Shown: positions 1,887 to 31,343 of the stretch, piece by piece
Layout: the number at the start of each line of letters is the position of its first letter
Position numbering within the stretch: the first letter of the stretch is position 1
From: an archaeon
GTDB taxonomy: Archaea; Iainarchaeota; Iainarchaeia; Iainarchaeales; CSSED10-239
Direction of reading: 5' to 3'
Length of the DNA stretch: 32,000 nt
Assembly: GCA_041657425.1 (NCBI GenBank)
Contig: JBBABY010000005.1
Coordinates: forward strand, 1-32,000
The notes under the pieces: model-generated
What the model saw: the letters and a program-made list of their open reading frames with translations, nothing else
What the model was told of the DNA's origin: nothing
The model's database searches: none
Program-made: the position numbers and the translations under genes

Positions 1887-2048
1887 GTTGTAAAAACTAA
1901 ATTGTAAAGCTAATAACTTTACAATTTTCTTTCTTTTTCTTTTTTTGAGCCCGTAACGCTTGAGCTCGCGCGCAATGGTTTCTTGCTATATGACTAGATT
2001 CTATAATTTATAGCTTATTAAATGGGTCATTTGTAATGACGAAAAATC
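1838..2048 (+). repeat. Direct repeat copy 2 of the unit at 1-190, carrying a 32-nt GC-rich insertion (1947-1978)
   Basis: See the copy 1 alignment. The insertion is gagcccgtaacgcttgagctcgcgcgcaatgg, where copy 1 has agtttaattttt. Confidence 0.85.
1899..1946 (+). terminator. Hairpin plus T-tract, paralogous to 63-108 with compensatory stem changes
   Basis: aaattgtaaag (1899-1909) pairs perfectly with ctttacaattt (1917-1927), then ttctttctttttcttttttt. Both arms differ from copy 1 but pairing is preserved. Confidence 0.6.
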
Positions 2049-2387: not shown

Positions 2388-5300
2388 ATGAATAAAAGTA
2401 TCATATCAAAACTAATTTTAGGAATGTTTTTAATATATTTTATTGGTAGCGTATTTGCTATTTGTCCAGTAACGTCTAGTGATGTAAGTATAACTGCTCC
2501 ATTAGCAGGAAATAAATGGGGTGGTACACAAAATGTCACTTGGGAAATATTAAATGGAAAAGATAATACAGAGTGTATGTATTCAATTTATTATACAATT
2601 GATTCTGAAAATTGGGTGTCTATCGCAATGACAGGGGATAATGTTACTAGTTATTCTTGGGATACAAGTTCTCGAGATGATGGGACAAATTATAAAGTTG
2701 GATTTTTTATAGACGGAGCATTCAACGTAATGAGTGGAATATTTACTATTGATAATACTTTACCAACAATAAATAGTATTGTTTTAGGCAGAGATACATT
2801 CACTGCCACTAATAATTCGACCACAATAACGTTTACATTTAGTGAAGCAGTAACTGGCTTTACTACGGAAGATATAAGTGTAGCTAATGGAGAAATATCC
2901 GGATTTACAGTGACTGGAAATCCTTTAATTTATACTGCAACTTTTACAGCAGATCCAAATAAAAAAGATGCAGAAAATACAATAATTGTTGGAACCGACT
3001 GGAATGATCTTGCATTAAATGCTCCATTAGCAGGTTTGACTTCTGGTAATTATACAATTAATACTGTAAGACCAACATTAGAAATTACTTTAAGCGATAA
3101 CGCATTAAAGATAGGAGATACTTCAACAGCAACTTTAACTTTTAGTGAAGAGCCTACAAATTTCACAATCGATGATATAATAACTCACGAGAATGGAACA
3201 GTTGGTGATTTTAATAATGACACTGGAGACCCATTAGTATTTACTGTAGTATTTACCCCAACAGCAGATGTTGAAGATGCAGTAAATACAATTACAACAG
3301 GAACGGATTGGACAAACGCAGCAGGTAATCCACCCGCAGAAGGATCAACATCTCCAAATTATACAATCGATACATTAAGACCAACAGTAGGAATTGTTCT
3401 TGCAGATGCTGCATTAAAAGTAGGAGAAACTTCATTAGTAACAATTACTTTTAACGAAGCAGTAACTGGTTTTGATAACGATGACATTACGACAATTGCC
3501 AATGGAATATTAACCGATGTAAATACTACCGATAATATAATTTGGTTAGCAACATTTGAACCAACAGACGATATAGAAGATACATCTAATGTAATCACAA
3601 TTACAAAAACAGGAGTTGCAGATCTTGCAGGTAATGCTGGAGCAAGTACAACTAGTTCTGGCAATTATGAAATAGATACAAAAGAACCAATATTAACAAT
3701 AACAATGGATGATAATGAATTAAATTATGGAGATACAGCAACAGTAACATTTACATTTAGTGAAGCGCCAACAGGGTTTGCTACAGCAGATGTAACAGTA
3801 ATTACAGGCGCAATAGGAACAATAACTGATACAAATGTACTTGAACAAACCGCAGTATTAACACCAACTTCAAGTAGGACTGTTGCATTAAATACAGTTA
3901 GTGTTTCAAGAGCTTGGACAGATGCTGCAGGAAATGCTCCTGAAGCAATTACTTATTCAGCAAATTATTCTGTTGACACAATGAGACCAACACCATTTTT
4001 TCTCAATCCTCCATCATCTCCAACAAATGATTCTCCAATGAGTATAAAAGTATCATTTAGTGAAGGCGTTACTACATTTATTGAAGGAGACATAGATATA
4101 GTAAACGGAACAATTGATGAAAGTTCTTTTACGGCAGTAAGCGATGCTACATATGATTTTAATGTAACCCCCACAGCCGATGGAGCAGTTACATTTAATA
4201 TTGCCGCAGATAAAGCAATAGATGCTGCAGGTAATGCAAACACAGCTGCAACACAATTAAGTATTATTTACGATGGCACAGCGCCAGATGTAACAAGTAT
4301 TGTTTTAGCAGATACTGCACTAAAAGCAGGAGAAACTTCATTAGTAACAATTACATTTACAGAAGCAGTAACTGGTTTTGCAAATGCAGACATTACAACA
4401 ATAGATAATGGTATATTAACAACAGTAGCAACTTCCGATAATATAGTTTTTACTGCAACATTTACTCCATCAATAAATACAGATGATAATGAGAATGTAA
4501 TCACAATTACGGAAAGTGGTTTAACTGATCTTGCAGGAACTGCAGGAGTTGGAACAACAAGTTCAGCAAATTATGCAATTGACACATTAAGACCAACACT
4601 TGCAATTACCATTGCAGATAATGATTTAATTATTGGGGAGACAACAACAGCAACTTTTACATTTAGTGAAGTACCAACAGAATTTGCAACAGCAGATGTA
4701 ACTGTTGGTAATGGAGCAATAGGAGCAATTAATGCAACTAATCCACTTATACAAACAGCAACATTAACTCCAAGTAGTGGTATAGAAGATATTACAAATG
4801 TAATAAGTGTTGCAACAAGTTGGGCAGACCCTGCGGGTAATGTTCCTGCGGCAGTTTCGGCGTCAGCAAATTATGTAGTTCATACAGATGTTAATGCTCC
4901 AACAATTACAATTACAAGTGATGCAAATGATACAACTGAAAATAGTGCAACAATTTCAGCAGATATAAATGATTTATCTGGAGGGACTTTAGATGTTTGG
5001 ACTATTGTTTCAGAAACCGGAACATCAAATATGTTTGTAGCACCAACAAGAACATATAGTGCAGGAACAGATATTGAATATGACATAAATAATTTAGATG
5101 CAAACACAGATTATAACTACACAATGTATGTAAGAGATATAGTTGGGAATTTAGGAAATGCAACAGGGACATTTACAACACAAGCATCTTCTGATGATAC
5201 AACAGAACCAACAGTTTCAATAACAGTTTCAGATATTTTCTGGGATGGTGTATATATTAATGCAAATATAGCAGATGATTCTAACAGTCTTTTAGAAGTA

Positions 5301-5855
5301 TGGTTAGAATACACTGACGGGAATAATACATCAATAGAATCTCCAATCTATATGAATGAAGGTTCAATTTCAATGGCCATAGGTGGATTAACAGAAAATA
5401 CAGATTATAACATAACAATGTATGTAAGAGATTCATCAGGTAATGTAAATAACGACACAGATAGTTTCAAAACTGATGTAAATGGTCCAGAAGATTATGC
5501 AATTGATTTCCCTAAATCAGGAAGTGGATTCACGTCTGTTTTCTTTGGAGATTTACTTGCAGAATTTGAATTAGAAGGTATGGCGAATTGGGATGAAAAT
5601 TTAGTAATGGATGATTTCCTAAATGCAACAACAGGCCCTGATGAAGAAAGATTAACAAGCGATTTAGTAAATGTCGTATATGTTTACAACTTTGTAGACA
5701 ATGCATGGGATACGATTGATGATGTAGAAGATACAAACTTTTCATCTTATAATATGCAAGATAATTTTACATCATTAAATTATGTTGTGTTTGATTTAGA
5801 GAACGAAGCATTACATAAATCAATTAGACACATGCCAGTTGAAGAAGCAGAATAA
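2388..5855 (+). CDS. Large secreted surface/adhesin-like protein with about 8 tandem Ig-like (Big-type) domains and 2 FN3-like modules
   Basis: N-terminal signal-like segment is MNKSIISKLILGMFLIYFIGSVFA. A ~100-aa unit recurs: (T/L)RPT..I.L.D..L..G.T...TFTFSE..TGF...D.....G.....YTATFTP......N.I.V....D.AGN......S.NY.IDT. It is Thr/Ala/Asn rich, has no C-terminal TM segment, and GGGAGA lies upstream of the ATG. Confidence 0.85.
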   Translation: MNKSIISKLILGMFLIYFIGSVFAICPVTSSDVSITAPLAGNKWGGTQNVTWEILNGKDNTECMYSIYYTIDSENWVSIAMTGDNVTSYSWDTSSRDDGTNYKVGFFIDGAFNVMSGIFTIDNTLPTINSIVLGRDTFTATNNSTTITFTFSEAVTGFTTEDISVANGEISGFTVTGNPLIYTATFTADPNKKDAENTIIVGTDWNDLALNAPLAGLTSGNYTINTVRPTLEITLSDNALKIGDTSTATLTFSEEPTNFTIDDIITHENGTVGDFNNDTGDPLVFTVVFTPTADVEDAVNTITTGTDWTNAAGNPPAEGSTSPNYTIDTLRPTVGIVLADAALKVGETSLVTITFNEAVTGFDNDDITTIANGILTDVNTTDNIIWLATFEPTDDIEDTSNVITITKTGVADLAGNAGASTTSSGNYEIDTKEPILTITMDDNELNYGDTATVTFTFSEAPTGFATADVTVITGAIGTITDTNVLEQTAVLTPTSSRTVALNTVSVSRAWTDAAGNAPEAITYSANYSVDTMRPTPFFLNPPSSPTNDSPMSIKVSFSEGVTTFIEGDIDIVNGTIDESSFTAVSDATYDFNVTPTADGAVTFNIAADKAIDAAGNANTAATQLSIIYDGTAPDVTSIVLADTALKAGETSLVTITFTEAVTGFANADITTIDNGILTTVATSDNIVFTATFTPSINTDDNENVITITESGLTDLAGTAGVGTTSSANYAIDTLRPTLAITIADNDLIIGETTTATFTFSEVPTEFATADVTVGNGAIGAINATNPLIQTATLTPSSGIEDITNVISVATSWADPAGNVPAAVSASANYVVHTDVNAPTITITSDANDTTENSATISADINDLSGGTLDVWTIVSETGTSNMFVAPTRTYSAGTDIEYDINNLDANTDYNYTMYVRDIVGNLGNATGTFTTQASSDDTTEPTVSITVSDIFWDGVYINANIADDSNSLLEVWLEYTDGNNTSIESPIYMNEGSISMAIGGLTENTDYNITMYVRDSSGNVNNDTDSFKTDVNGPEDYAIDFPKSGSGFTSVFFGDLLAEFELEGMANWDENLVMDDFLNATTGPDEERLTSDLVNVVYVYNFVDNAWDTIDDVEDTNFSSYNMQDNFTSLNYVVFDLENEALHKSIRHMPVEEAE
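2754..4880 (+). repeat. Intragenic tandem array of ~300-bp units encoding Ig-like domains
   Basis: Units start near 2754, 3065, 3370, 3670, 3970, 4270 and 4575. Units 3370-3670 and 4270-4570 are about 80% identical at the DNA level by eye, as are 3670-3970 and 4575-4875. Confidence 0.8.
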
Positions 5856-5891: not shown

Positions 5892-7067
5892 ATGATAAAT
5901 TATAAAAAATTAATTAAAACACTTTTTTTATTTTTCTTTATTGGTATTTTAACTGGGGTGGTTTTCGCTTATGGGCCATTAACTGAACCTTGCTGGATTA
6001 AAGGAACAGCAACAGCGGGAGCAGGAATTACTACTGTTGAAGGTTTAACAGTGGAGGCTTATGACGGTAGCACTTTATTAAAAAGTGGAATTATTGCATC
6101 AGGTGCATTCAGTTTAAATTCAATTGGTGCAAATGATGGAGATACAATTTCTATTAAAGTTTATGGGGCAGAGTTTGATACATTTACTTTTGAAGGCTTT
6201 TGTAAAACTGGAGAAAATCCATGGATTGTTTTAAATGCAATAACAATTGCAAAACAAGCAAACGGAGTAAGTTGTTCAAATAATGCAATTTGTACAAGCG
6301 GATATTGTAATTCAAGTAATGTTTGTGCAACAGAAGTAACAGGTGGCGGCGGAAGTAGTTCCGGAGGATTAACAACACTAACAACTACAACCGAAACTTA
6401 TAGTTCAATAGACTCCCCAAGTGCTTCAGAGATAAGAGAGTTATTAGTAAGTACAGGACTTAGTACAAATGAAATACAAGCTTATGTTGATGCAATAAAT
6501 TCAGGACTATTAAGTATTACTACAACTCTTAATGTTGTAAAAACAGGCACGGGTAGTTCAGCAACTTATAAATCTACTTTTACAATTACTATAAGAAATA
6601 ATTCAGGAAGTAATATGGAAGACATAACTGTTGTTCAAGTAATACCTAAAAATATTGCAAGTGATGCTTCTCAAATAATATCATTAACACAATATAGAGT
6701 ATTAGTTGCAGACCCAGTATTAGAATTTACTATTGCCTCATTAAATGCAGGGCAATATGCAACAATTATTTATTCAATTAAAGATAATGTTACAGAAGCA
6801 GAATTTAAAAGCATGTCAGGAGCAGTAGCAAAAGGAACAGTTGTTGAAGCAACACCTATCCCAGTAACTGAAGAAGTAATTGAAGAAATAGACACCACAC
6901 CAAATACTACGCCAGATACAGGATATACAGATACTGGATATATAGATACAACAATTAAGAAATCAAATAACAATTGGATTTATTGGTTAATTGGAATTGT
7001 TATCGTTTTAACAGTTGTTAGGATTTTATTCTTTAAGAAGAATAATCATAGAAGAAAAAGATTATAA
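5892..7067 (+). CDS. Membrane-anchored surface protein (signal peptide, Cys-rich knot, Gly/Ser/Thr linker, C-terminal TM plus basic tail)
   Basis: N-terminus is LFLFFFIGILTGVVFAYG. It has GVSCSNNAICTSGYCNSSNVCA, a GGGGSSSGGLTTLTTTTET linker, and the C-terminal WIYWLIGIVIVLTVVRILFF followed by KKNNHRRKRL. It sits 37 bp downstream of the adhesin gene. Confidence 0.7.
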   Translation: MINYKKLIKTLFLFFFIGILTGVVFAYGPLTEPCWIKGTATAGAGITTVEGLTVEAYDGSTLLKSGIIASGAFSLNSIGANDGDTISIKVYGAEFDTFTFEGFCKTGENPWIVLNAITIAKQANGVSCSNNAICTSGYCNSSNVCATEVTGGGGSSSGGLTTLTTTTETYSSIDSPSASEIRELLVSTGLSTNEIQAYVDAINSGLLSITTTLNVVKTGTGSSATYKSTFTITIRNNSGSNMEDITVVQVIPKNIASDASQIISLTQYRVLVADPVLEFTIASLNAGQYATIIYSIKDNVTEAEFKSMSGAVAKGTVVEATPIPVTEEVIEEIDTTPNTTPDTGYTDTGYIDTTIKKSNNNWIYWLIGIVIVLTVVRILFFKKNNHRRKRL

Positions 7068-7090
7068 AATCTATTTTCTCTTTTTTTATT

Positions 7091-7133
7091 TTTAGTTTAA
7101 TTTTTTTCTTGCCATGTGACTAGATTTTAATTT
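7091..7133 (+). repeat. Third copy of the intergenic motif tttagtttaatttttttcttgNNatgtgactRgatttta (also at 108-146 and, without the leading part, at 1979-2004)
   Basis: 7091-7133 is tttagtttaatttttttcttgccatgtgactagattttaattt, against 108-150 tagtttaatttttttcttgtgatgtgactggattttataattt. Confidence 0.7.
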
Positions 7134-7180
7134 TTGCACTGGACAGGTGGTCCCCCGAAAACGACCCCACTTTCAAAAAC
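7125..7180 (+). repeat. Junction element Y, copy A (CCCCC subtype)
   Basis: tttaatttttgcactggacaggtggtcccccgaaaacgaccccactttcaaaaac; core ttgcactggaca is at 7134-7145. Confidence 0.75.
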
Positions 7181-7209
7181 AATATATTTACAATGTGGAG
7201 GTTGTTTTT

Positions 7210-7515
7210 ATGGACGTAAATAATTCAATAGCAATTTTTGAAAGTAAAAAGATAAGAAGAATCTGGCATGAAGAAGATTGGTGGTTTTCAGTTGTGGATA
7301 TAGTTGGTGCATTGACTGATAGCGATGATTCTAGAAATTATTGGAAAGTTTTAAAATTTAGATTAAAAGAAGAAGGTAGTGAAGTGGTTACAAATTGTAA
7401 CCAGTTGAAATTAGTCGCAGAAGACGGAAAACTAAGAGAAACAGATTGTGCAACTAATCACAAAATTAATATTTTGCACTGGACAACTACTCTAGAAAGG
7501 ATTATAAACTACTAA
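7210..7515 (+). pseudogene. Bro-N / DinD-like (ORF6N-type) gene, C-terminally truncated
   Basis: IAIFESKKIRRIWHEEDWWFSVVDIVGALTDSDDSRNYWKVLKFRLKEEGSEVVTNCNQLKLVAEDGKLRETDCA matches the family pattern as I recall it. The expected continuation (..LFRLIQSIPSPKAEPFK..) is missing and is replaced from about 7463 by junction element copy C. ATG 7210 is preceded by GGAGG. Confidence 0.55.
7464..7500 (+). repeat. Junction element Y, copy C (CTCTAGAAA subtype)
   Basis: aattaatattttgcactggacaactactctagaaagg; core is at 7474-7485. Confidence 0.75.
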
Positions 7516-7558
7516 TTCTAAAGTATATATATACTTTAAAATAATTATATATATTTAA

Positions 7559-8605
7559 ATGTTGGTGAATTTAGTGAATAAAAAATTAGCAATTAAAAAT
7601 AGCACAACTGAATTTTTAATATTTACTTCAAAAGTAGGAGAAGAGGGCATTGAAGTTAAATTTGAAGATGAAAATATTTGGTTAAGTCAAAAGATGATTG
7701 CAAAATTATTTGATGTAAATATTGCTACAATTAATGAGCATTTAAAGAATATATTTCTTACACAAGAATTAGATGAAACTTCAACTATTCGGAATTTCCG
7801 AATAGTTCAAATTGAGGGTGGCAGAAATGTATCGCGTAATATAGATTTTTATAATTTAGATGCAATAATCTCCGTAGGGTATAGAGTAAATTCAAAAAGA
7901 GCAACTCAATTCAGAATTTGGGCAACTAAGATATTAAAAGAATTTGCAATAAAAGGGTATGTCTTAGATAAGAAAAGATTAGAAAATGGAGCCTTCTTAA
8001 GTAAAAATTACTTTGATGAACTTTTAGCCGAAATTAGAGAAATACGATTAAGTGAAAGAAATTTCTACCAGAAAATAACAGACATTTATGCAACAAGCAT
8101 AGATTATGATAAAAGTGCAGAAATGACAAGAGAATTTTTTGCAAAAGTTTAAAATAAACTTCATTACGCAATACATAAACACACCGCACCTGAACTAATT
8201 GTTAAAAGAGCAAATAGTAAAAAAGATAATATGGGTTTAACTTCCTGGAAAAACTCTCCAGATGGCAAAATAATTAAGCCAGATGTATCAATAGCTAAGA
8301 ATTATTTAACAAAAGAAGAACTAGAATCTTTAGGGAGAATAGTTAGTGCATATTTAGATTTAGCAGAAGAAAGAGCAAAAAGGAAAATACCAATGACTAT
8401 GGAAGATTGGGCAAAAAGAATTGATGCGTTTTTAAAATTTGATGAACGAGAAATATTAATGAATGCAGGAGAGATAACTGCAGAGATTGCAAAACAACAT
8501 GCAGAAAAAGAATTTGAGAAATACAGAATTATACAAGATAAGTTTTTTGAATCAGATTTTGATAAAGAGACAAAGAAGTTACTATCAATTACTAAAAAAA
8601 AGTAG
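7559..8605 (+). pseudogene. rhuM: RhuM-family (virulence-protein-like) gene interrupted by a single in-frame TAA at 8150-8152
   Basis: ORFs 7559-8152 and 8231-8605 are in the same frame. Read-through gives ...REFFAKV*NKLHYAIHKHTAPELIVKRANSKKDNMGLTSWKNSPDGKIIKPDVSIAKNYL..., collinear with RhuM proteins (YNLDAIISVGYRVNSKRATQFRIWAT, DIYATSIDYD). Family members as I recall them have Gln (CAA) at the stop position. Confidence 0.75.
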
Positions 8606-8672
8606 TTGGTTACAAATTGTAACTTACTGAAAATGGGAGTTGTCCGAAAGAATCGGATGACTGAAATGCAAT
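8606..8672 (+). pseudogene. Short relic of a second Bro-N-type gene
   Basis: gttggttacaaattgtaacttactgaaaatg encodes LVTNCNLLKM, compared with VVTNCNQLKL at 7383-7412. The 16-nt ggttacaaattgtaac is identical in both copies and the flanks have decayed. Confidence 0.4.
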
Positions 8673-8674
8673 CT

Positions 8675-10981
8675 TTACTCTTCTTTCTCTTTATGGTCAT
8701 TTGTTCTTTTTACAATCTTAGGAGCAAATTCTTCTTTATACCATTTTTTCCACAAAGACATTATTTGCACGAAATCAATCTTGCCGTGCTCTTCTATCCA
8801 GTCTTCTTTTAAAAGTAGTAACTTATTGTGTGCCTGCGTAGTGTTTTCTGCCTCAAGTAACTCTAAACATTTAAGTTCTTTAGCGACCTCTACTTGGAAT
8901 TCTTTTTCATTACCAAGTAGCTTTATGTAATCCCAGATTTCTTCAATGGAAAGCCCTGAAAGAGTTGCAATCTTATTAAATAAGTCTGAGTCTTTAAGTG
9001 CGTCTTCGTTTAATATAAGGCTGTCTTTACTAGCATCATAAGTCATTAAATCAAGAAGTCCACCTTCTGCATCAGGATCTGCTGTCCAATGTTTTTTAAC
9101 TTCAGTAATCTGTACAATTCTTCTATAGCTCTTAAGGGAACCCTTAAATCTAATGGGTTTAGCTACAACAATAATATCTGTTGCCTTAAACGAAGTTGTT
9201 GGAACTCCAAGGTCATTAACAACTCTATCCCAAACAGAGTAAGCTGAGTCTGCGTGTATTGTTCCCATAACTACGTTACCAGCTGCACCAACTCTCATTG
9301 CTTCATAAAGAACTTTAGCTTCAACACTTCTAACTTCTCCAACAATGATTGCAGAGTCTCCAAGTCTAAGTGATGTTCTTAAAGCATCTTCTGGTTTAAC
9401 TTCTGCTGATTCTTCGTCAGAACCAATTGCAGATTTTGTTTTTAATCTCTGAGCATTAAATCCAATATCTTTAAAGTACATTACAGGCAATTCAAGAGTG
9501 TCTTCCTGAACTATGATTCTTTTATTTTGTAAAATTTCAAGTATAAGTGCAGTCATCAGAGACGTCTTTCCTGCACCACGAGAACCTGCAACAAGCAATG
9601 TAGAATTATTATCAATAAAGAAAGATAATAGTCCAGCAGCTAGTGGATTAAGAGATTTTGCATTTATTAATTGTGGCAAAGTCCATGGAGTGTCTTTGTG
9701 AAGACGGAAAGCAAATGCGGTACCATCAGTTGCTAGAGGCCTTCCGATAACTGCAACTCTTGTGTTAAGGTCAGGAAGATCAAAGTCTAAGATTGGATGA
9801 GCGTCATCAAAAGGACGTCCAGACATTGCTCTCATTTTTCCTACAAGACTTTCTGCTTCTTTGTCTGTGTAAAGTATATTAGTTTGACATTGTCCAAATT
9901 GACTGTGTTCAACATATATTGGTTTACCACCAATTGGTGAATCAATATAAACGTCTGTTAATCTTCTATCTGATAATACTAATTCTAATATTCCGTAACC
10001 AATAGTGTATCTAGTAACAATTTCTGAAAGTGCAGACACATCGTCTGGTTCAAGAGCAATTCCATATTTTCTTGCAACATCTGCAATTGTGCTTTGATAG
10101 ATTCTTTGAAAGTATTTTCTAGTTCCTGCTCCAGAAGTTAAAGTGACTTTACCTGGTTGATAGTTAGCAACTGTTTCTTTTGTTTTAGAAAGAACAAAAT
10201 AATGATCAGGAGAAAGTGTATATTCTGGAGGATTGATATTGTAAATCAATTCAATCTTTTCAGGATGTTTAAATATTTGAACACTAGTAGTTAATACTTG
10301 ATATTCATCAATCAATTCAAATTTATCAGCATCGCTTCTTAAAAGTTGTGAACCAATAAAAGCAGGTTTGATTTGTGCTTCAAAAACCGTTTTATAAAGT
10401 TCTGTTAAATCATTAAAGTCTTTAAATTTTGTAAGTATTGGTTTTAATACTTTTATAAATTCACTTTTATCATATTGCTCTTTAATTGAAAGTAAATGTT
10501 TAAGATTTGCTTTAAAACATTTTTCACAAGGTTTACCTGATTGTTCTTCACTTCTGCTTCTGGTGTTTTCAATTTCTCTTACAAGTGAGATGTAAGAAGC
10601 AATAGGGTCATAAGCAAGTAAGTCTCTTGCAAATCTAATAATATTATTATGTCTTTGTGGATAACAATCATCGCAATCCATATCGTCTATTCTTAAGTGA
10701 GATGAAACCCACACAGCTCTATTTTCAAAATCAAGAAGAAGATCTACCATTTCTTTTAAGTAAGAAACTTGTTTAGTGGTATAAACTCTCTCATAAACTT
10801 CAGCCAAAATTACTTCATCAGCATCAACGGTTTCTAAGGTTTTCATAACATGATATCTACAACGAGCATCATCAGAAATGGAGGTTCCATAAACACAATG
10901 CCTACAGTCAAAGACAAGCTTCTTCTTTCCCCCCTCATTATCAACAAGATAATCTCCAACTGTGTAGTTACCAATCTTCAT
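8675..10981 (-). CDS. GspE/VirB11/FlaI-family secretion or type IV pilus ATPase with a long Cys-rich N-terminal extension
   Basis: Walker A is GSRGAGKTSLMTAL, the Asp/Walker B region is RIIVQEDTLELP, plus IIVGEVRSVEA and His box VMGTIHADSA. The N-terminal ~300 aa carry CRHC..CRYH, CDDC and CEKC. Confidence 0.85.
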   Translation of the reverse strand: MKIGNYTVGDYLVDNEGGKKKLVFDCRHCVYGTSISDDARCRYHVMKTLETVDADEVILAEVYERVYTTKQVSYLKEMVDLLLDFENRAVWVSSHLRIDDMDCDDCYPQRHNNIIRFARDLLAYDPIASYISLVREIENTRSRSEEQSGKPCEKCFKANLKHLLSIKEQYDKSEFIKVLKPILTKFKDFNDLTELYKTVFEAQIKPAFIGSQLLRSDADKFELIDEYQVLTTSVQIFKHPEKIELIYNINPPEYTLSPDHYFVLSKTKETVANYQPGKVTLTSGAGTRKYFQRIYQSTIADVARKYGIALEPDDVSALSEIVTRYTIGYGILELVLSDRRLTDVYIDSPIGGKPIYVEHSQFGQCQTNILYTDKEAESLVGKMRAMSGRPFDDAHPILDFDLPDLNTRVAVIGRPLATDGTAFAFRLHKDTPWTLPQLINAKSLNPLAAGLLSFFIDNNSTLLVAGSRGAGKTSLMTALILEILQNKRIIVQEDTLELPVMYFKDIGFNAQRLKTKSAIGSDEESAEVKPEDALRTSLRLGDSAIIVGEVRSVEAKVLYEAMRVGAAGNVVMGTIHADSAYSVWDRVVNDLGVPTTSFKATDIIVVAKPIRFKGSLKSYRRIVQITEVKKHWTADPDAEGGLLDLMTYDASKDSLILNEDALKDSDLFNKIATLSGLSIEEIWDYIKLLGNEKEFQVEVAKELKCLELLEAENTTQAHNKLLLLKEDWIEEHGKIDFVQIMSLWKKWYKEEFAPKIVKRTNDHKEKEE

Positions 10982-10997
10982 TTTTAATCAAACCAAT

Positions 10998-11198
10998 CTA
11001 TTTCTTAAGTATTAAATCAATCAACTCTAGTTTTTCTGAATTACTTAATAATTTATCTTTTTTAATTTCTGCAATAATTGCTTTTTTATCTGCGGTTGTT
11101 AATTTGTTTATGCTTTTCTTATAATGCTCAACAGCTTTTTGTCTATCAGTTCGCTTCCTTAATTCTGTACAAACTACTGCAATTCTTTTTGGAGGCAT
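10998..11198 (-). CDS. Small basic hypothetical protein, probably co-transcribed with the ATPase
   Basis: A 66-aa ORF lies 16 bp upstream of the ATPase start on the same strand. I recognise no motif in it. Confidence 0.4.
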   Translation of the reverse strand: MPPKRIAVVCTELRKRTDRQKAVEHYKKSINKLTTADKKAIIAEIKKDKLLSNSEKLELIDLILKK

Positions 11199-11341
11199 AT
11201 TCTTCCGTTTTTATATATTTTACTTAATATATATGGTTAGTATTTATATTTATATTCCTTTCTTTTCGTGATTTTTTCAATAAACTAAAACTGCGGCTAT
11301 TGGTTGCAGAAATTAGGAATTAGAATTATTTAATTAGATAA

Positions 11342-11396
11342 ATTTAAAATGTTTGCACTGGACATCTGCCCCCGAAAACACCCCCGTTTTAAAAAT
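11342..11396 (+). repeat. Junction element Y, copy B (CCCCC subtype)
   Basis: atttaaaatgtttgcactggacatctgcccccgaaaacacccccgttttaaaaatc; core is at 11353-11364. Confidence 0.75.
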
Positions 11397-11408
11397 CATA
11401 ATATATTT

Positions 11409-12386
11409 ATGGACAAAGAAAAAGAATATTTGATATTTCTTAAAGAAATAAAAGAAAGAATTGTTTCTGCGCAATATAATGCATTAAGAGCAGTTAATAA
11501 AGAACTAATTAATCTGTATTGGGATATAGGTAAAGGGATTGTGGAGAAACAAAAACAATTAGGCTGGGGAAAATCCATAGTAGAGAATCTATCAAAAGAT
11601 TTACAAAAGGAATTTTCTGGCACAAGTGGATTTTCTACAACTAATCTTTGGAGAATAAGAAACTTTTATTATGAATATAGTAAAAATGTAAAACTCGCGC
11701 CATTGGCGCGAGAAATAGGATGGTTTAAAAATGTTATTATTATGGAGAAATGTAAAACTGATGACGAAAGAGAATTTTACATAAAACAGACAAAAGAGAA
11801 CAATTGGACAAAGAATATTTTGATACATCAAATAGAAAACCAAACTTACGAAAAGTATCTTTTAAATCAAACAAACTTTTCTAAAACAATTAAACCAAAA
11901 TTTCAAGGCCAATCTAAACTTGCAGTTAAAGATGAATATACTTTTGATTTTCTAGAACTAAGAGAAGAACATCTAGAAAAAGGATTAATAAGTAAAATAA
12001 AACTATTACTTCTAGAACTAGGAAGCAACTTTTGTTTTGTTGCTAATCAATATAGATTAGAAGTAGGTGGCGAAGAGTTCTTTATTGATCTATTACTATA
12101 TAATCGTTCACTTAAATGTCTTATTGCAATTGAGCTTAAGATTGGTAATTTCAAGCCAGAGTATGTAGGCAAGATGCAATTCTATCTTTCTGCTTTAGAT
12201 GATCTAGTTAGAATCAAAGGAGAAAATAAATCAATAGGGATTATAATTTGTAAAGAAAAAAACAGAACAATTGTAGAATATACTTTAAGAGACACAACTA
12301 AGCCGATAGGAGTTTCAACCTATAAACTTCCACAAAAAATAATTAAATTTCTGCCAACAAAAGAAGAACTAGAAAAAATTATTTAA
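11409..12386 (+). CDS. yhcG: DUF1016 / YhcG-like PD-(D/E)XK nuclease
   Basis: The N-terminus is YLIFLKEIKERIVSAQYNALRAVNKELINLYWDIGKGI. The nuclease core is FFIDLLLYNRSLKCLIAIELKIGNFKPEYVGKMQFYLSALDD. ATG 11409 matches family N-termini better than the track start 11349, which lies in the repeat. Confidence 0.8.
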   Translation: MDKEKEYLIFLKEIKERIVSAQYNALRAVNKELINLYWDIGKGIVEKQKQLGWGKSIVENLSKDLQKEFSGTSGFSTTNLWRIRNFYYEYSKNVKLAPLAREIGWFKNVIIMEKCKTDDEREFYIKQTKENNWTKNILIHQIENQTYEKYLLNQTNFSKTIKPKFQGQSKLAVKDEYTFDFLELREEHLEKGLISKIKLLLLELGSNFCFVANQYRLEVGGEEFFIDLLLYNRSLKCLIAIELKIGNFKPEYVGKMQFYLSALDDLVRIKGENKSIGIIICKEKNRTIVEYTLRDTTKPIGVSTYKLPQKIIKFLPTKEELEKII

Positions 12387-12387
12387 G

Positions 12388-12424
12388 TTTAAAATTTAGC
12401 ACCGGACAGGCACTCTAGAAAACC
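12388..12424 (+). repeat. Junction element Y, copy D (CTCTAGAAA subtype)
   Basis: tttaaaatttagcaccggacaggcactctagaaaacc; core tagcaccggaca is at 12397-12408. Confidence 0.7.
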
Positions 12425-12467
12425 TTTTAATAATGCTTGCCCTATAATATATATTGATGTGATTTTT

Positions 12468-13787
12468 ATGCAACTTACAAGTGAACAGATTTATGCAACA
12501 ATTAAGACTCAAACAGGGCTAGAGGATTCTGAACTTAATAAAAAGATAGAAGAGATTAAGGAAAAGTATCAAGGGCTCTTAAGTGATGTCGGTGCAAATA
12601 TTCTTCTTTCTAAACAGTTAGGAGTTAATTTAGATTTAAAACAAAAAACTAGTTCAATAACTAAAATTTCTGAAATTAATGCAACTATTGATTCTGTTTC
12701 TCTTTATGCAAGAATAAAATCAATCCCTCCAGTAAAGAACTATAAATCAAAGGATGGAAAGGAAGGAAAGATTCAAGCAGTTTATTTAGCTGATGAAACA
12801 GGCATTATAAAATTAAATTTATGGCAAGATAAAGCAGAGTTAATACATGAACAAAACTTTGAAAAGAATGATCTTGTTTTGATAAAGGATGCGGCAATAA
12901 ACCAGTACAATGAAAAGATAGAATTATCTTTAAGACAAGGCGGGCAAATAATTAAAGATCCTGAAGGCGTTACTGTTCCAAAGATTGAAGAAAAAGTAAT
13001 TAAAATTTCAGGAATTGATGCAGCGCCAGAAGGCCCAGTTGATACTATTGGAAGAATAATTGCAATCTATCCACTTAGGACTTTTAAAAAAGAAGACAAG
13101 GAAAGATTTGCAATTAATTTTGAGATAAGTGATGGCCTAAAGTCAATGAAGTGCGCGGCTTTTGATACCTGGGCTCAAGAGATATCCACCAATTATAAGA
13201 AAGGAGATTTAGTAAGATTATCTGATGTTGTAATTAAGGACGGATTATATGATCTAGAGTTATACATTAATTGGAATTCAACAATTACAAAGAATCCAAA
13301 TACAAAAATAAAGATTCCTGCATTAAGTGAATTAATTTCTGCAGATTTAAAAGAAGAGAAAATTCCAAGTCTTCAAAACAATAACAGCTATAAGATTACA
13401 GGCACAGTAATTTCTGTAAATAAAGGAAATTTAAGATCATTTAAGTGTCCAGATTGTAAAGAGAAAGTTTTCTTAATCAATAATGAATTTATTTGTGAGG
13501 CTTGTAATAAACAAGTAGATCCTGAAATGAATATCTTTTCTTCAGTTAATGTTGATGATGGAGATGGCGTAATAAAAGTAAGTCTTTTCAATCAACTTTT
13601 AGAAAGTGTTTATGATTTAAAGAAAGAAGACTTAAAGAAAGACTTAACACAAGAAGAAAAAGACAATATTTTTTCAAAAGCAGAAGGAAAGATACTTGGT
13701 AAGCAAGCAATAATAACAGGAAAAGCAAAGCAGAATGATTTTTCCAATCAACTAGAATTCATGGCTGGCACTTTTGAAATTGTTTAA
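12468..13787 (+). CDS. rpa: Replication protein A-like ssDNA-binding protein (multiple OB folds plus a zinc ribbon)
   Basis: Repeated OB-like segments are present (VSLYARIKSI..., GRIIAIYPLRTF..., YKITGTVISVNKG...). The zinc ribbon is CPDCKEKV...CEACNKQV. It sits beside mcm. I prefer ATG 12468 over GTG 12459. Confidence 0.7.
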   Translation: MQLTSEQIYATIKTQTGLEDSELNKKIEEIKEKYQGLLSDVGANILLSKQLGVNLDLKQKTSSITKISEINATIDSVSLYARIKSIPPVKNYKSKDGKEGKIQAVYLADETGIIKLNLWQDKAELIHEQNFEKNDLVLIKDAAINQYNEKIELSLRQGGQIIKDPEGVTVPKIEEKVIKISGIDAAPEGPVDTIGRIIAIYPLRTFKKEDKERFAINFEISDGLKSMKCAAFDTWAQEISTNYKKGDLVRLSDVVIKDGLYDLELYINWNSTITKNPNTKIKIPALSELISADLKEEKIPSLQNNNSYKITGTVISVNKGNLRSFKCPDCKEKVFLINNEFICEACNKQVDPEMNIFSSVNVDDGDGVIKVSLFNQLLESVYDLKKEDLKKDLTQEEKDNIFSKAEGKILGKQAIITGKAKQNDFSNQLEFMAGTFEIV

Positions 13788-13943
13788 ATTTGTAGAATTT
13801 AACAAAAATAGAGGCATTTCTTTGGTTTTCCCCCTCACTTCCTGTATTGTTTCCATAGTTATATTGCGTTTTCACAAAAAAAACAAAGCAAGCTTTAATA
13901 TAACTAGTTTGCTACAGATATATAATAAAACAAGTGAAAAGTT

Positions 13944-29294: not shown

Positions 29295-31343
29295 TTACTT
29301 TTCATTTCCCATTTTTTCTAATTTCAAAAGTTCATTCCATCTTCTGTCTATTTCTTCCTGTATTGATTTAAGAACTGCTTTATTCTCTGGTTTTAAAACA
29401 CTTTTAAATTTAGTTTGTGTTTTTAAGAATTCTTCAATTGGTAGTTTGTTTGTTGGTTTGTAATTGATAATTACTTTTCCATTAACCACTTCATAAAGAG
29501 GCCAAAAGCAAGTTTCAGTTGCAAGTTTACTTATCTTAATTGTTTGTGAAGAATCTGCCTTCATGTTTGTTGGGCAAGCTGCAAATGCAATTAGAACTGC
29601 AGGGCCAGAAACATCAAATGCTTTCTTTGCTTTTTCAAATATATCAACTTGGTTAGAAGGATTAATTTGAGCAACATAAGGAATGTTATGAGCTGCTGCA
29701 ATCTTTGTTAAATCTTTTGAGAACTCTACTTTACCATAAGAACACTTCCCTGAAGGAGTTGTTGAGGTTATTGCACCCTTTGGCGTTGCTGAGCTTCTCT
29801 GGTTGCCTGTGTTGTGTACTACAACCCCATCAGCAATGAAATTATGTTCTCCTTCAACTCTTAAATCAAAGGTTTGTTCTTTGCCAACTTCTTTAATATT
29901 TTTTATAATTTCAGTATCGAAGTTTTCATTTCCAATCAAAAAGTTTTGATATTTATATTGTGTAGGATATTTAGTTGTATTCCAATAATCTTTTTTACTA
30001 AAACAAATATAGTGATATTCTGAATTTTTCAGTAATTTCTTTCCAACGACAAGAGTTCCTTTTTCTTTTTTTTGAGTTGTAATTTTACCAACTCTGTAAT
30101 TAAGTGTCTGTAATAATAATCTTAATCTTAAGATTAATTCTTTACTTGCAGACACATATCTACAACTATCTTTTTTCTTTTTATGAATATACCCGTCAGA
30201 TAACAACAACCCTTCAATAAATGCTTCTTTTTGCTCATCTGGAATCGTATAAACCCAAGAAGGAATTATTTTATTCTTTGCACCTTTGTTAAATCCAAGG
30301 GATTCAATAAATTTAGTTATGTTAACTGAATTCATATAGATGTAAGTTTTATCAGTAGTAATTGTCTTAAATCCAAATACTTTTTTACAAGTAGTTATAC
30401 ATTTTTCTCTACCCTCTGTTCCTTCAGGTAAGGCAAAACCTATTTCTCCTTTATCTCTAATCCAACCATCTCCAAGATAAAGTCCTAAGAATAACATTAA
30501 ATCTGTTGTTGATTTTTCTGGTATTTTTACATCATTAATTACATTTACTTTATAATCGCCTTTCTTTGAAAGTTGTATTTTTTCAAAAGTAAACGGTTTA
30601 TTTCCTTTTAATTTCTTTAATGTAATTATTTGATCTCCTTTTTTTAATTCTTCAAGTGTTTTCCAAATTAAAGTGTTTGGTTTTCCTCTTGGAAGTTTAT
30701 TAACAACTAAGAATGGGTGATTTCCTGTTGCTTTGATGTTATGATGAAAAGTTTCAATTTCATAAACTTTCTTAACTCCATTATCAAACACACCACTGCA
30801 TTTTTTCAGAACCAATTTGTGTGTTTTTTGATCAAATGCATAAACCATTTCTCCAACTTTAATTTCAGTTATTTTTTTAAGTCCGGTTTCTGTGTAAATT
30901 AATGAGTCTTTACTTAAGCAATTCATGTACCCTTCATTCGAATAACAAAGATAAACAAAATCATGTCCTCTTTCTAGTGCTCCAGATAAACTTTGAAGAC
31001 CAATATCAAAACTTCCACCATCTCCAGCAATTACTAAAAAATTAATGTCTTTTTTTATTTTTCCTTTTTTCTTTTGTGCTCTGTATGCACTTTCAACTCC
31101 AGAAATTGTTGCGGCAGAGTTTGCAAAAAGAGAATGTATCCAAGGAATATTCCATGCAGTCTGTGGATAAACTGTTGTTGTAACTTCTGCACAAGAAGTT
31201 GCGCTGCTTGCAACAACTGGTTTGTCGCTTGCCGCAATCACAGTCTTACAAATAATTGCAATGGGGCACCCTGCACAAGTTCTGTATCCTGGAACCATTG
31301 CTTTACTTTCAGCTAATTTAATAGCAAGTTCTTTTGAGTTCAT
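29295..31343 (-). CDS. porB: Pyruvate/2-oxoacid:ferredoxin oxidoreductase beta (TPP-binding, PorB-like) subunit, interrupted by an intein
   Basis: The N-extein (141 aa) has PGYRTCAGCP and the TPP motif GDGGSFDIGLQSLSGALERGHDFVYLCYSNEGYMN. The C-extein (171 aa) resumes with TGNQRSSATPKGAITSTTPSGK. The spliced product would be 312 aa. Confidence 0.85.
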   Translation of the reverse strand: MNSKELAIKLAESKAMVPGYRTCAGCPIAIICKTVIAASDKPVVASSATSCAEVTTTVYPQTAWNIPWIHSLFANSAATISGVESAYRAQKKKGKIKKDINFLVIAGDGGSFDIGLQSLSGALERGHDFVYLCYSNEGYMNCLSKDSLIYTETGLKKITEIKVGEMVYAFDQKTHKLVLKKCSGVFDNGVKKVYEIETFHHNIKATGNHPFLVVNKLPRGKPNTLIWKTLEELKKGDQIITLKKLKGNKPFTFEKIQLSKKGDYKVNVINDVKIPEKSTTDLMLFLGLYLGDGWIRDKGEIGFALPEGTEGREKCITTCKKVFGFKTITTDKTYIYMNSVNITKFIESLGFNKGAKNKIIPSWVYTIPDEQKEAFIEGLLLSDGYIHKKKKDSCRYVSASKELILRLRLLLQTLNYRVGKITTQKKEKGTLVVGKKLLKNSEYHYICFSKKDYWNTTKYPTQYKYQNFLIGNENFDTEIIKNIKEVGKEQTFDLRVEGEHNFIADGVVVHNTGNQRSSATPKGAITSTTPSGKCSYGKVEFSKDLTKIAAAHNIPYVAQINPSNQVDIFEKAKKAFDVSGPAVLIAFAACPTNMKADSSQTIKISKLATETCFWPLYEVVNGKVIINYKPTNKLPIEEFLKTQTKFKSVLKPENKAVLKSIQEEIDRRWNELLKLEKMGNEK
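29811..30920 (-). mobile_element. Class 1 intein (370 aa) with a LAGLIDADG homing-endonuclease domain
   Basis: It starts with Cys (CLSKDSLIY, block A). Block B is KATGNHPFLV. The LAGLIDADG motifs are LFLGLYLGDGWI and FIEGLLLSDGYI. The C-terminal blocks are EHNFIADGVVVHN, followed by a +1 Thr. Confidence 0.88.

Follow-up and report, generated by a model that had tools for sequence, protein, structure and literature searches.

What are four copies of one short sequence doing around accessory genes and in front of rpa in an archaeal genome? The question comes from a stretch of 32,000 nucleotides (nt) of contig JBBABY010000005.1 (hereafter the window, meaning the whole stretch that was analysed), where an inspection of the letters alone, which we call the original prediction, had noticed four same-orientation copies of an element with the core GCACYGGACA. 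That prediction kept two models: cassette-boundary sites of an integron-like system, or a shared operator/promoter linking rpa with DNA-damage-type accessory genes. We find that the four copies belong to a family whose members lie between genes in the orientation of the gene behind them, precede replication, repair and accessory genes, are kept in front of orthologous core genes, and coincide with insertions and deletions. On these comparisons, we think it reasonably probable that the module is a promoter-proximal regulatory element of a replication/repair regulon, and that recombination between its copies shuffles accessory genes.

With 25-37% G+C, the window is AT-rich, and its genes (topoisomerase VI, mcm, rpa, eIF genes and an archaeal-type ATPase) point to an archaeon. 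Its rpa product is identical to a protein entered at NCBI under 'MAG: archaeon'; the matches to this product that bear a name are entered as 'Candidatus ainarchaeum sp.', taken here as Candidatus Iainarchaeum (DPANN, phylum Iainarchaeota); the rpa homologues are labelled replication factor A1 by their sources. When at most one mismatch was allowed, the core had exactly four matches in the window, at 7136, 7476, 11355 and 12399, all on the plus strand, against a chance expectation of 0.87; at least four were reached in 1 of 100 shuffles. The copies and the genes behind them are arranged as follows (ORF, open reading frame).

7133..7209, plus strand: copy A, full (C-string) type; core 7136-7145, CCCCCGAAAAC 7152-7162, AT box 7183-7192, GGAGGT 7197-7202, ATG 7210; nhmmer E = 8e-11 against the family profile
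7210..7515, plus strand: truncated Bro-N gene; weak Pfam Bro-N match over residues 14-80
7472..7551, plus strand: copy C, variant (CTCTAGAAA) type; core 7476-7485; placed where Bro-N breaks off, ahead of RhuM
7559..8605, plus strand: RhuM-family pseudogene (Pfam PF13310) in two ORFs, 7559-8152 and 8231-8605
11352..11408, plus strand: copy B, full type; core 11355-11364, CCCCCGAAAACACCCCC 11369-11385, AT box ending directly at ATG 11409; nhmmer E = 5e-10
11409..12386, plus strand: DUF1016/YhcG PD-(D/E)XK nuclease gene (Pfam DUF1016_N and YhcG_C)
12397..12467, plus strand: copy D, variant type, upstream of rpa; core GCACCGGACA 12399-12408, CTCTAGAAAAC 12413-12423, TATA-like CTTTTAATAATG 12424-12435
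12468..13787, plus strand: rpa (replication factor A), the core gene behind copy D (Pfam Rep_fac-A_C and OB fold)

Copies A and B match the family profile over about 50 nt, and CTCTAGAAA is common to C and D. Profile positions 1-122 and 150-249 (of 252) of PF13310 are divided between the two RhuM ORFs, which is why we regard that gene as a pseudogene. The distance from the end of the core to the next ATG is 64 nt for A, 73 for C, 44 for B and 59 for D, in keeping with the expected position 45-75 nt before a plus-strand start codon. The four co-oriented copies, their coordinates, the consensus and the two subtypes were all described correctly by the original prediction. The 35-55 nt that it assigned to the element are indeed present, but the element is longer, and full copies reach an AT-rich box beside the start codon. 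Even at E <= 50, the family profile found neither of its two degenerate matches (211-245 and 13908-13920).

How widespread is the element? We count 51 distinct true copies in 0.6 Mb of related DPANN (Iainarchaeota-like) DNA, a total that merges a genome scan, a scan of metagenome contigs and loci fetched via rpa homologues (cited here by L numbers). One scan of species-representative genomes gave 8 true matches in three 'archaeon' metagenome-assembled genomes plus 3 chance matches, and one scan of metagenome contigs gave 48 loci, about 44 of them true. The samples that yielded these metagenome-assembled genomes are from anaerobic digesters and activated sludge. The largest number on one contig is 7 copies (293 kb); other contigs have 5 (254 kb), 4 (227 kb) and 4 (140 kb).

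The module is 45-65 nt long, with the aligned consensus TY-GCACTGGACA-nCTAC-CCYCCCGAAAAY-RACCCC-TnTTTnTAAAg...AATATATTTA (in short form TY-GCACTGGACA-nCTAC-CCYCCCGAAAAY-RACCCC-TnTTT...ATATATTTA). From a sharp 5' edge at TY-GCACTGGACA, it runs through nCTAC, the C-string, GAAAAY, a second C-run and a T-rich stretch to the AT-rich box near the start codon. What precedes TY is unrelated between types of copy: TTTTTAAATC in some, TTTATAAAC or a GC-rich hairpin in others, and in the rest none of the three. An upstream TATA-like box (TTTAAAAT) was rejected as part of the element, as several copies have GC-rich or unrelated sequence there. The variant with CTCTAGAAA in the C-string/GAAAA part is rarer and is carried by C, D, L143 and, in degenerate form, L114; copy C and the L143 copy, which precedes a 73-residue gene without Pfam match, are 82.5% identical over 63 nt. 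Within a genome, even the type of the 12-nt upstream flank is common to copies that precede different genes, a pattern of concerted evolution.

A GC-rich hairpin lies immediately 5' of the core in about eight copies (including L112, L142, L115, L124, L089, L113 and L107). Its stems vary yet stay complementary (GAATCG/CGATTC, GAGCCG/CGGCTC, AACCG/CGGTT), around the loop NNCG(A/C)AAC.

The placement of the copies is strict. Fifty of the 51 are intergenic, and the exception, copy C, lies within the frame of the truncated Bro-N gene; no copy is inside an intact gene. A same-strand ORF starts 44-125 nt downstream of 45 copies; for three others the ORF lies 235-253 nt downstream, past a decayed cassette or a long spacer, and the remaining three have no called ORF (truncated gene or contig end). 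Three classes of distance from core end to ATG can be told apart. At 44-48 nt the AT box abuts the ATG, at 56-65 nt ATATTATT is followed by GGTGA, and at about 90-107 nt the gene has its own TATA-like box and a Shine-Dalgarno sequence. Both subtypes precede genes throughout the family; the apparent rule that the CCCCC subtype precedes and the CTCTA subtype follows accessory genes was an accident of tandem packing in the window. Bulk statistics on TATA-like 8-mers upstream of 358 ORFs gave noisy peaks from which a transcription start was not placeable, and this route to the promoter geometry was abandoned.

Which genes stand behind the module? The downstream genes fall into the following groups.

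RadA/Rad51: L092/L126, L139, L112 and L144, with four distinct upstream sequences
rpa: window copy D and L002-L008
RadC: L128
a family of 473-507 residues without Pfam or NCBIfam match: L090, L097, L099 and L127
Bro-N, KilA-N and ORF6N: several copies
DUF1016/YhcG nuclease: eight copies
RhuM: window copy C
VapB-type antitoxin with PemK/MazF toxin: L088, L089 and L140
a conserved 49-residue protein: L108, L118, L125 and L137
an 86-residue protein without family match: L002, L098 and L129

The AlphaFold2 model of a 486-residue protein has a mean predicted local distance difference test score of 85.5, and its top Foldseek matches are all family-B DNA polymerases (Sulfolobus PolB1, Thermococcus and Pyrococcus PolB, Pol epsilon; probability 1.0, E ~1e-6). 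The 473-507-residue family is predicted from this model to have a shortened family-B DNA polymerase fold, and we refer to it as PolB-like. It is lineage-wide and apparently single copy (L090, L097, L099, L127, L147, L148), and its invariant cysteines suggest a metal site. One further copy of the module lies in the divergent intergenic region adjoining orc1/cdc6 (L142; TIGR02928, 230 bits).

Two small proteins of the list have features of their own. The 49-residue protein is basic (MFRN.NR[YF][KR][DE]N.CVMYKSVDDLI..N[KR]SLIGRT[KR]ISNY...), and it stands behind a copy in four lineages and has no family match. The 86-residue protein (MKQDILHYPNLKTVLEVE..; L002 from 21157, L098, L129) is encoded about 100 nt downstream of a copy in each of three lineages; its only NCBIfam match, to RNA polymerase subunit P, is far below threshold (E 0.017). 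On inspection of its sequence, it could be a small DNA-binding protein, which would make it a candidate autoregulated factor.

Is the module kept in front of orthologous genes? PolB-like loci were retrieved by protein homology alone, and so independently of the module search pattern. At 63% protein identity (L147) the locus carries the diverged module TTCGCATCGGTCA-tttac-TCTTCCGAAAATAACCCTTGTTT, and at 46% (L148/L149, Ca. Iainarchaeum) it carries TTTCTCGGCAA-actac-CCCCCTTAGAAAAGAACCCTTGTTTTGAAAACCATATATTATTGCC. Thus, the module is old and has been kept before an orthologous core gene. In these loci the C-string/GAAAA/CCC-TGTTT part is more conserved than GCACYGGACA, the part chosen as core by the original prediction. 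All four sequences upstream of radA keep the module, whereas the leader that joins it to the start codon has diverged.

The rpa loci, likewise retrieved by homology, tell a similar story within the clade that has the family, where rpa always has a copy within about 250 nt upstream (window, L002 group, L009, L088). In L002-L008 the orthologous core is 58 nt upstream of rpa. In L009 and L088 the rpa-proximal core has been lost, and a full copy stands 235-253 nt upstream of rpa, before a decayed DUF1016 remnant. Before mcm of L012, at a distance of 45 nt, stands a weak variant, TTGGTCAACTACCCCTCCAAAAAC (8498-8526; also in L013); it scored E 5.9 before its addition to the model, and as a possible relative of the module it is only a lead.

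Do genes come and go at the copies? Comparison of strains and relatives shows that the presence or absence of bracketed genes maps to element boundaries, as the recombination model of the original prediction calls for; copies thus behave as recombination junctions. The rpa slot holds no cassette in L002-L008, one in the window and two in L088/L140. In L002-L008 the order is left flank, core and rpa promoter; the window has an orthologous left flank (TTAATTAGA..AAAATGTTT) followed by copy B with DUF1016, 12 nt, copy D and rpa; and in L088/L140 the same left flank as in the window is followed by a copy with antitoxin/toxin, a copy with a DUF1016 remnant, and rpa. The same left flank therefore adjoins the first core in each arrangement, and the flank of window copy B is the orthologue of the rpa-proximal flank of the relatives. 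The DUF1016 cassette is absent from the slot in L002-L008, and decayed remnants of it are present in L009 and L088. A second site behaves in the same way: L089 and L113 have a common upstream flank, and L113 has one extra copy with DUF1016, together with a duplication of 70 nt of the flank and, preceding Bro-N, a variant copy (CCCACTGGACA).

The Bro-N gene of the window records such an event. Against an intact 286-residue Bro-N cassette (L115), the window is 85% identical in nucleotides from 7136, the first base of the core, to 7451; after this point the frame has no further homology and runs into copy C, whose homology to another family member begins at 7472. Intact relatives have 277-310 residues. 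Thus, about 200 codons are gone from Bro-N, the junction being 24 nt before the C core, and the proposal that copy C marks the truncation holds. A strain contig from another sample with an identical MCM protein (L001) is 97% identical to the window from 7552 (L001 412) and unrelated upstream, and its RhuM has a different N-terminus. The whole block of X motif (a separate repeat, described below), copy A, Bro-N fragment and copy C is therefore strain-specific, a case of strain-level replacement. Contigs L007 and L128 begin inside, or 2 nt before, a core. Neighbouring copies are 340-1070 nt apart (A-C, B-D, L095, L088). All of these breakpoints are at or near copies, with no single fixed bond.

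Another slot near rpa is also variable: a gene for 316-320 residues without Pfam match lies between rpa and mcm in close relatives (L002 11324-12274) and is missing in the window (13788-13943) and in L010.

Based on these results, we propose a model in two parts. In the first, a DNA-binding factor would recognize the core and the C-string part of the module and co-regulate the genes behind it, namely radA, rpa, radC and the gene with the predicted PolB fold, together with Bro-N, KilA-N, ORF6N, RhuM, DUF1016 nuclease and toxin-antitoxin genes, presumably in response to an inducing signal; Orc1/Cdc6 is a lead for the class of regulator. The distal AT-rich box would belong to the promoter or initiation region. 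A point against the model is that in many copies, including those of the short class, this box abuts the ATG or GGTGA and so cannot serve the gene as a TATA box, for which the canonical spacing is about 26 nt. If transcription started at the ATG, the TFB-recognition-element position would fall on CCGAAA and the TATA position on a GC-rich stretch, and, as a speculation, this would make an activator-dependent weak promoter. The shared-operator model of the original prediction is supported by the gene set and extended by it to radA, radC, PolB-fold and toxin-antitoxin genes, and also by the modules at PolB-like loci that were found through the protein.

In the second part of the model, the genome, assumed to be about 1 Mb, would hold some 20 or more near-identical co-oriented copies (extrapolated from at most 7 matches to the search pattern per 293-kb contig). 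Homologous recombination or gene conversion between these dispersed direct repeats would delete, insert and swap units of module and gene. Such recombination would explain both the truncation of Bro-N by copy C and the position of copies on either side of accessory genes in the window. We favour homologous recombination as the simplest mechanism because the breakpoints do not share one bond and no integrase is recorded in the annotated loci.

Other observations do not sit easily with this regulon model. About 60 nt are conserved between non-homologous genes, far beyond what one transcription-factor site needs. Most copies were found by a pattern requiring the core and CCCGAAAA, and the column conservation is partly built in by this search. 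The rpa copies are without the C-string, only a degenerate trace precedes rpa in a lineage with 73% rpa identity (L010), and none lies upstream of rpa at 51% (L012). The genes behind copies include some without a repair link, among them the 49-residue and 86-residue proteins and a 168-residue membrane-like protein. Finally, the copy next to orc1/cdc6 is lineage-specific, being present in L142 and absent from the orthologous intergenic region of L146, so gain or loss of a copy can occur; the 13 kb surrounding orc1/cdc6 in L146 contain neither a copy nor CACTGGA.

Could the copies instead be dedicated recombination sites, at which a recombinase cuts at or beside the core and moves units of element and gene, as in an integron or hot-spot system? 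The sharp 5' edge of homology at the core (A compared with L115), the tight packing (12 nt from the DUF1016 stop to the next core in the window and in L095), the varying cassette number at the rpa slot, the differing content of one site in L089 and L113, the two contigs that break at a core, and a cargo typical of integron and defence-island cassettes would all be expected of such sites. What makes this explanation unlikely in our judgement is that single-copy core genes (radA, PolB-like) also have the element in front of them, at orthologous positions even between deeply diverged lineages, that breakpoints lie off the core (24 nt upstream for Bro-N/C, 67 nt downstream of the C core in L001, and the 70-nt duplication in L113), that no integrase or transposase domain is recorded among the annotated genes of the window and of the loci retrieved by protein, and that no attC-like fold was found. 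Single-stranded DNA folds of copies A-D had z-scores of -0.66 to +1.08 against shuffles on both strands, none of them significant, and the RNAalifold consensus of 16 copies reached -0.51 kcal/mol without compensatory pairs; a structured RNA or attC-like hairpin was therefore rejected. The cassette-boundary model of the original prediction thus survives in part: copies do act as junctions, but a site-specific system as first described is not supported, given also that the conserved part belongs to the downstream gene. The same fold results bear on a second possibility, that the module acts in RNA, as a transcribed 5' leader that controls processing or translation via its C-rich single-stranded tract. 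The module always lies on the sense strand, and its spacing to the start codon is short and fixed, often with the module reaching the ATG; TATA-like boxes (TTTATAAAC, TTTTTAAATC) just 5' of the core in many copies would put the transcription start in the C-string. Yet many copies, one of those before radA among them, have a GC-rich hairpin or unrelated sequence in place of this box, and there is neither conserved structure or covariation nor a match in Rfam. Rfam 15 had no match in the window at gathering scores, and in seven element-bearing loci at E <= 1 it gave one tRNA and an overlapping chance match to Plastid-ycf2 (E 0.96), neither at the element, so a known RNA family was rejected as well. 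With no fold and no Rfam match, we read the module as duplex DNA or unstructured RNA, and a leader acting as RNA seems to us quite unlikely.

A third alternative is a small non-autonomous mobile element, similar to a miniature inverted-repeat transposable element (MITE) or a promoter-carrying insertion, that lands between genes and has only a secondary link to repair. Near-identical copies within one genome, the variable 5' attachments (including the hairpin with covarying stems), and the copy beside orc1/cdc6 in L142 that is absent from L146 agree with mobility, as do the 17-nt inverted repeats of 88% complementarity around the L142 copy. On the other side, the module has been retained at orthologous positions down to 46% protein identity, it stands in discrete distance classes before same-strand ORFs and never in an intact gene, and no terminal inverted repeats or target-site duplications are common to the copies. 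By the marks of a MITE or insertion sequence, too, the alignment has no common terminal repeats, flanking inverted repeats are confined to the L142 copy, and every copy with a downstream ORF is on that ORF's strand. No family member was found in IMG/VR viral contigs: the pattern GCACYGGACAN{6,8}CYMGAAA gave 73 matches there, all by chance and without flank similarity, and on this basis a viral origin was rejected. We consider the mobile-element explanation very unlikely for the family as a whole. A tRNA/tmRNA fragment serving as attachment site was rejected, since the window has no tRNA gene.

In L142 the 17-nt inverted repeats (7808-7824 and 7976-7992) flank a segment of 151 nt holding the orc1/cdc6-adjacent copy, and the orthologous intergenic region of L146 is without this whole segment. 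By sequence, it may be a mobile form of the element.

To which described systems does the module compare? Among the genes under SOS and competence control in bacteria are those for a recombinase, for a single-strand-binding protein and for a PolB-type polymerase, along with radC and with toxin-antitoxin and antirepressor-type genes. The SOS box itself is palindromic (CTGT-N8-ACAG or a lineage variant), and LexA is its repressor. Our regulon model would be analogous in carrying an upstream signal on a recombinase gene (radA in place of recA), rpa in place of ssb, and the PolB-type, radC, toxin-antitoxin and antirepressor-type genes. Unlike an SOS operator of 16-20 nt, the module has about 60 nt and occurs in an archaeon, where no LexA is expected; neither its core nor the whole module is palindromic. 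In Sulfolobales, the DNA-damage-responsive element 5'-ANTTTC-3' lies 23-55 nt upstream of the ATG of damage-induced genes and is bound by the activator Orc1-2 (PMC6061795). The GAAAAY of the module (reverse complement RTTTTC) lies at a comparable distance, starting about 36 nt before the ATG in the short class (measured on L096), but only the GAAAAT variants fit ANTTTC, and orientation and context differ. The lineage and the gene set (ups, ced and tfb3 in Sulfolobales) are also different, and the conserved sequence of the module is much longer.

The archaeal origin recognition box (ORB) offers another comparison, for which ORB and mini-ORB reference sequences were taken from PMC1904270 and PMC1868953 (dyad core TTCCAGTGGAAA, complement TTTCCACTGGAA). 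Ten of 11 positions of TTTGCACTGGA agree with the mini-ORB TTTCCACTGGA, a match marginally above chance in that 41 to 363 of 5000 shuffles (0.8-7%) score as well. Pyrococcus ORBs (CCCCCCAGAGTTTCATTTCCACTGGAAC) also have a G:C homopolymer string and RTTTTC beside the dyad. In the module, however, the string has the opposite strand polarity and other spacing, and the copies are single and dispersed upstream of genes, not paired around an AT-rich unwinding element. At orc1/cdc6 itself, we found a single copy in L142 and none in L146, where several inverted copies flanking an unwinding element would mark an origin. That the element is the origin's own ORB was rejected, as the orc1/cdc6 locus of the close relative (L146) is without it. 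It is quite improbable, though of interest, that the module is an operator derived from an origin box (mini-ORB-like dyad, G:C string, RTTTTC), is bound by Orc1/Cdc6 to activate a DPANN repair regulon, and offers preferred crossover points for cassettes. If true, this would be an archaeal counterpart of SOS-integron coupling, made from replication-initiator parts.

Archaeal integrons are defined by attC folds (PMC9668308), and like attC sites the module forms repeated intergenic elements between co-oriented accessory genes, in short tandem arrays with variable gene content. Unlike them it has no single-strand hairpin (in attC an imperfect one, with R''/L'' paired to L'/R'), also precedes essential core genes, and has no gene for IntI, the tyrosine recombinase of integrons, recorded nearby among the annotated genes; the R' core GTTRRRY is absent from the consensus of the module alignment. 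In integrons, attC sites can also be told by clustering at less than 4 kb, and for the module some neighbouring copies are the 340-1070 nt apart given above. Whereas attC forms the 3' end of the cassette ORF, the conserved part of the module lies 3' of the junction and 5' of the downstream gene, with which it travels and co-varies. In the literature, the core string occurs solely in primer sequences of papers on other subjects, and no paper describing a radA or DNA-damage promoter motif in DPANN archaea came up in a keyword search. In these searches and in Rfam, we found no published description of the element.

Hardly anything is known, as far as we are aware, of how DPANN archaea regulate transcription, and we know of no accepted archaeal DNA-damage or replication-stress regulon outside Sulfolobales. 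By uniting repair and accessory genes, the module would define a testable regulon and could serve as bait for its regulator. It would also give a functional hint for the gene families behind it that are little understood even in bacteria, and suggests that dispersed promoter modules can make accessory genes cassette-like without an integrase. The unusual traits are the length of the module, its SOS-like gene content in DPANN archaea and its apparent secondary role as a cassette junction.

The window and its relatives contain other features. The X motif, which was thought to share the core of the module, proved to be a separate repeat family, with copies at 76-190, 1914-2046 and 7061-7129 of the window and on the minus strand of L130 (about 1296). 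It consists of the 3' end of a gene, a hairpin (TTGTAAG..CTTACAA), a T-run and TTTCTTGnnATRTGACTRGATTYTATAATTTAG. The duplication between positions 1-190 and 1840-2050 of the window is longer and takes in the end of a small ORF, and a piece related to the GC-rich hairpin of the module is inserted in the second X-motif copy (1946-1980, minus strand).

A second conserved non-coding element appears to lie about 110 nt upstream of mcm, CCCC(C/T)TCACTTCC(T/G)GTA(T/A)T (window 13830-13850). The TCACTTCC element is also found in L004-L008, L009, L012/L013 (less than 300 nt from mcm), L088/L122 and L102, and it is kept even where rpa is only 51% identical. Elsewhere in the window, a 1155-residue surface-type protein with seven Big_12 Ig-like repeats is encoded at 2388-5855, with a DNA repeat period of 300-309 nt, and a thiamine-pyrophosphate enzyme gene is split by an intein with a LAGLIDADG domain (29295-31343, minus strand).

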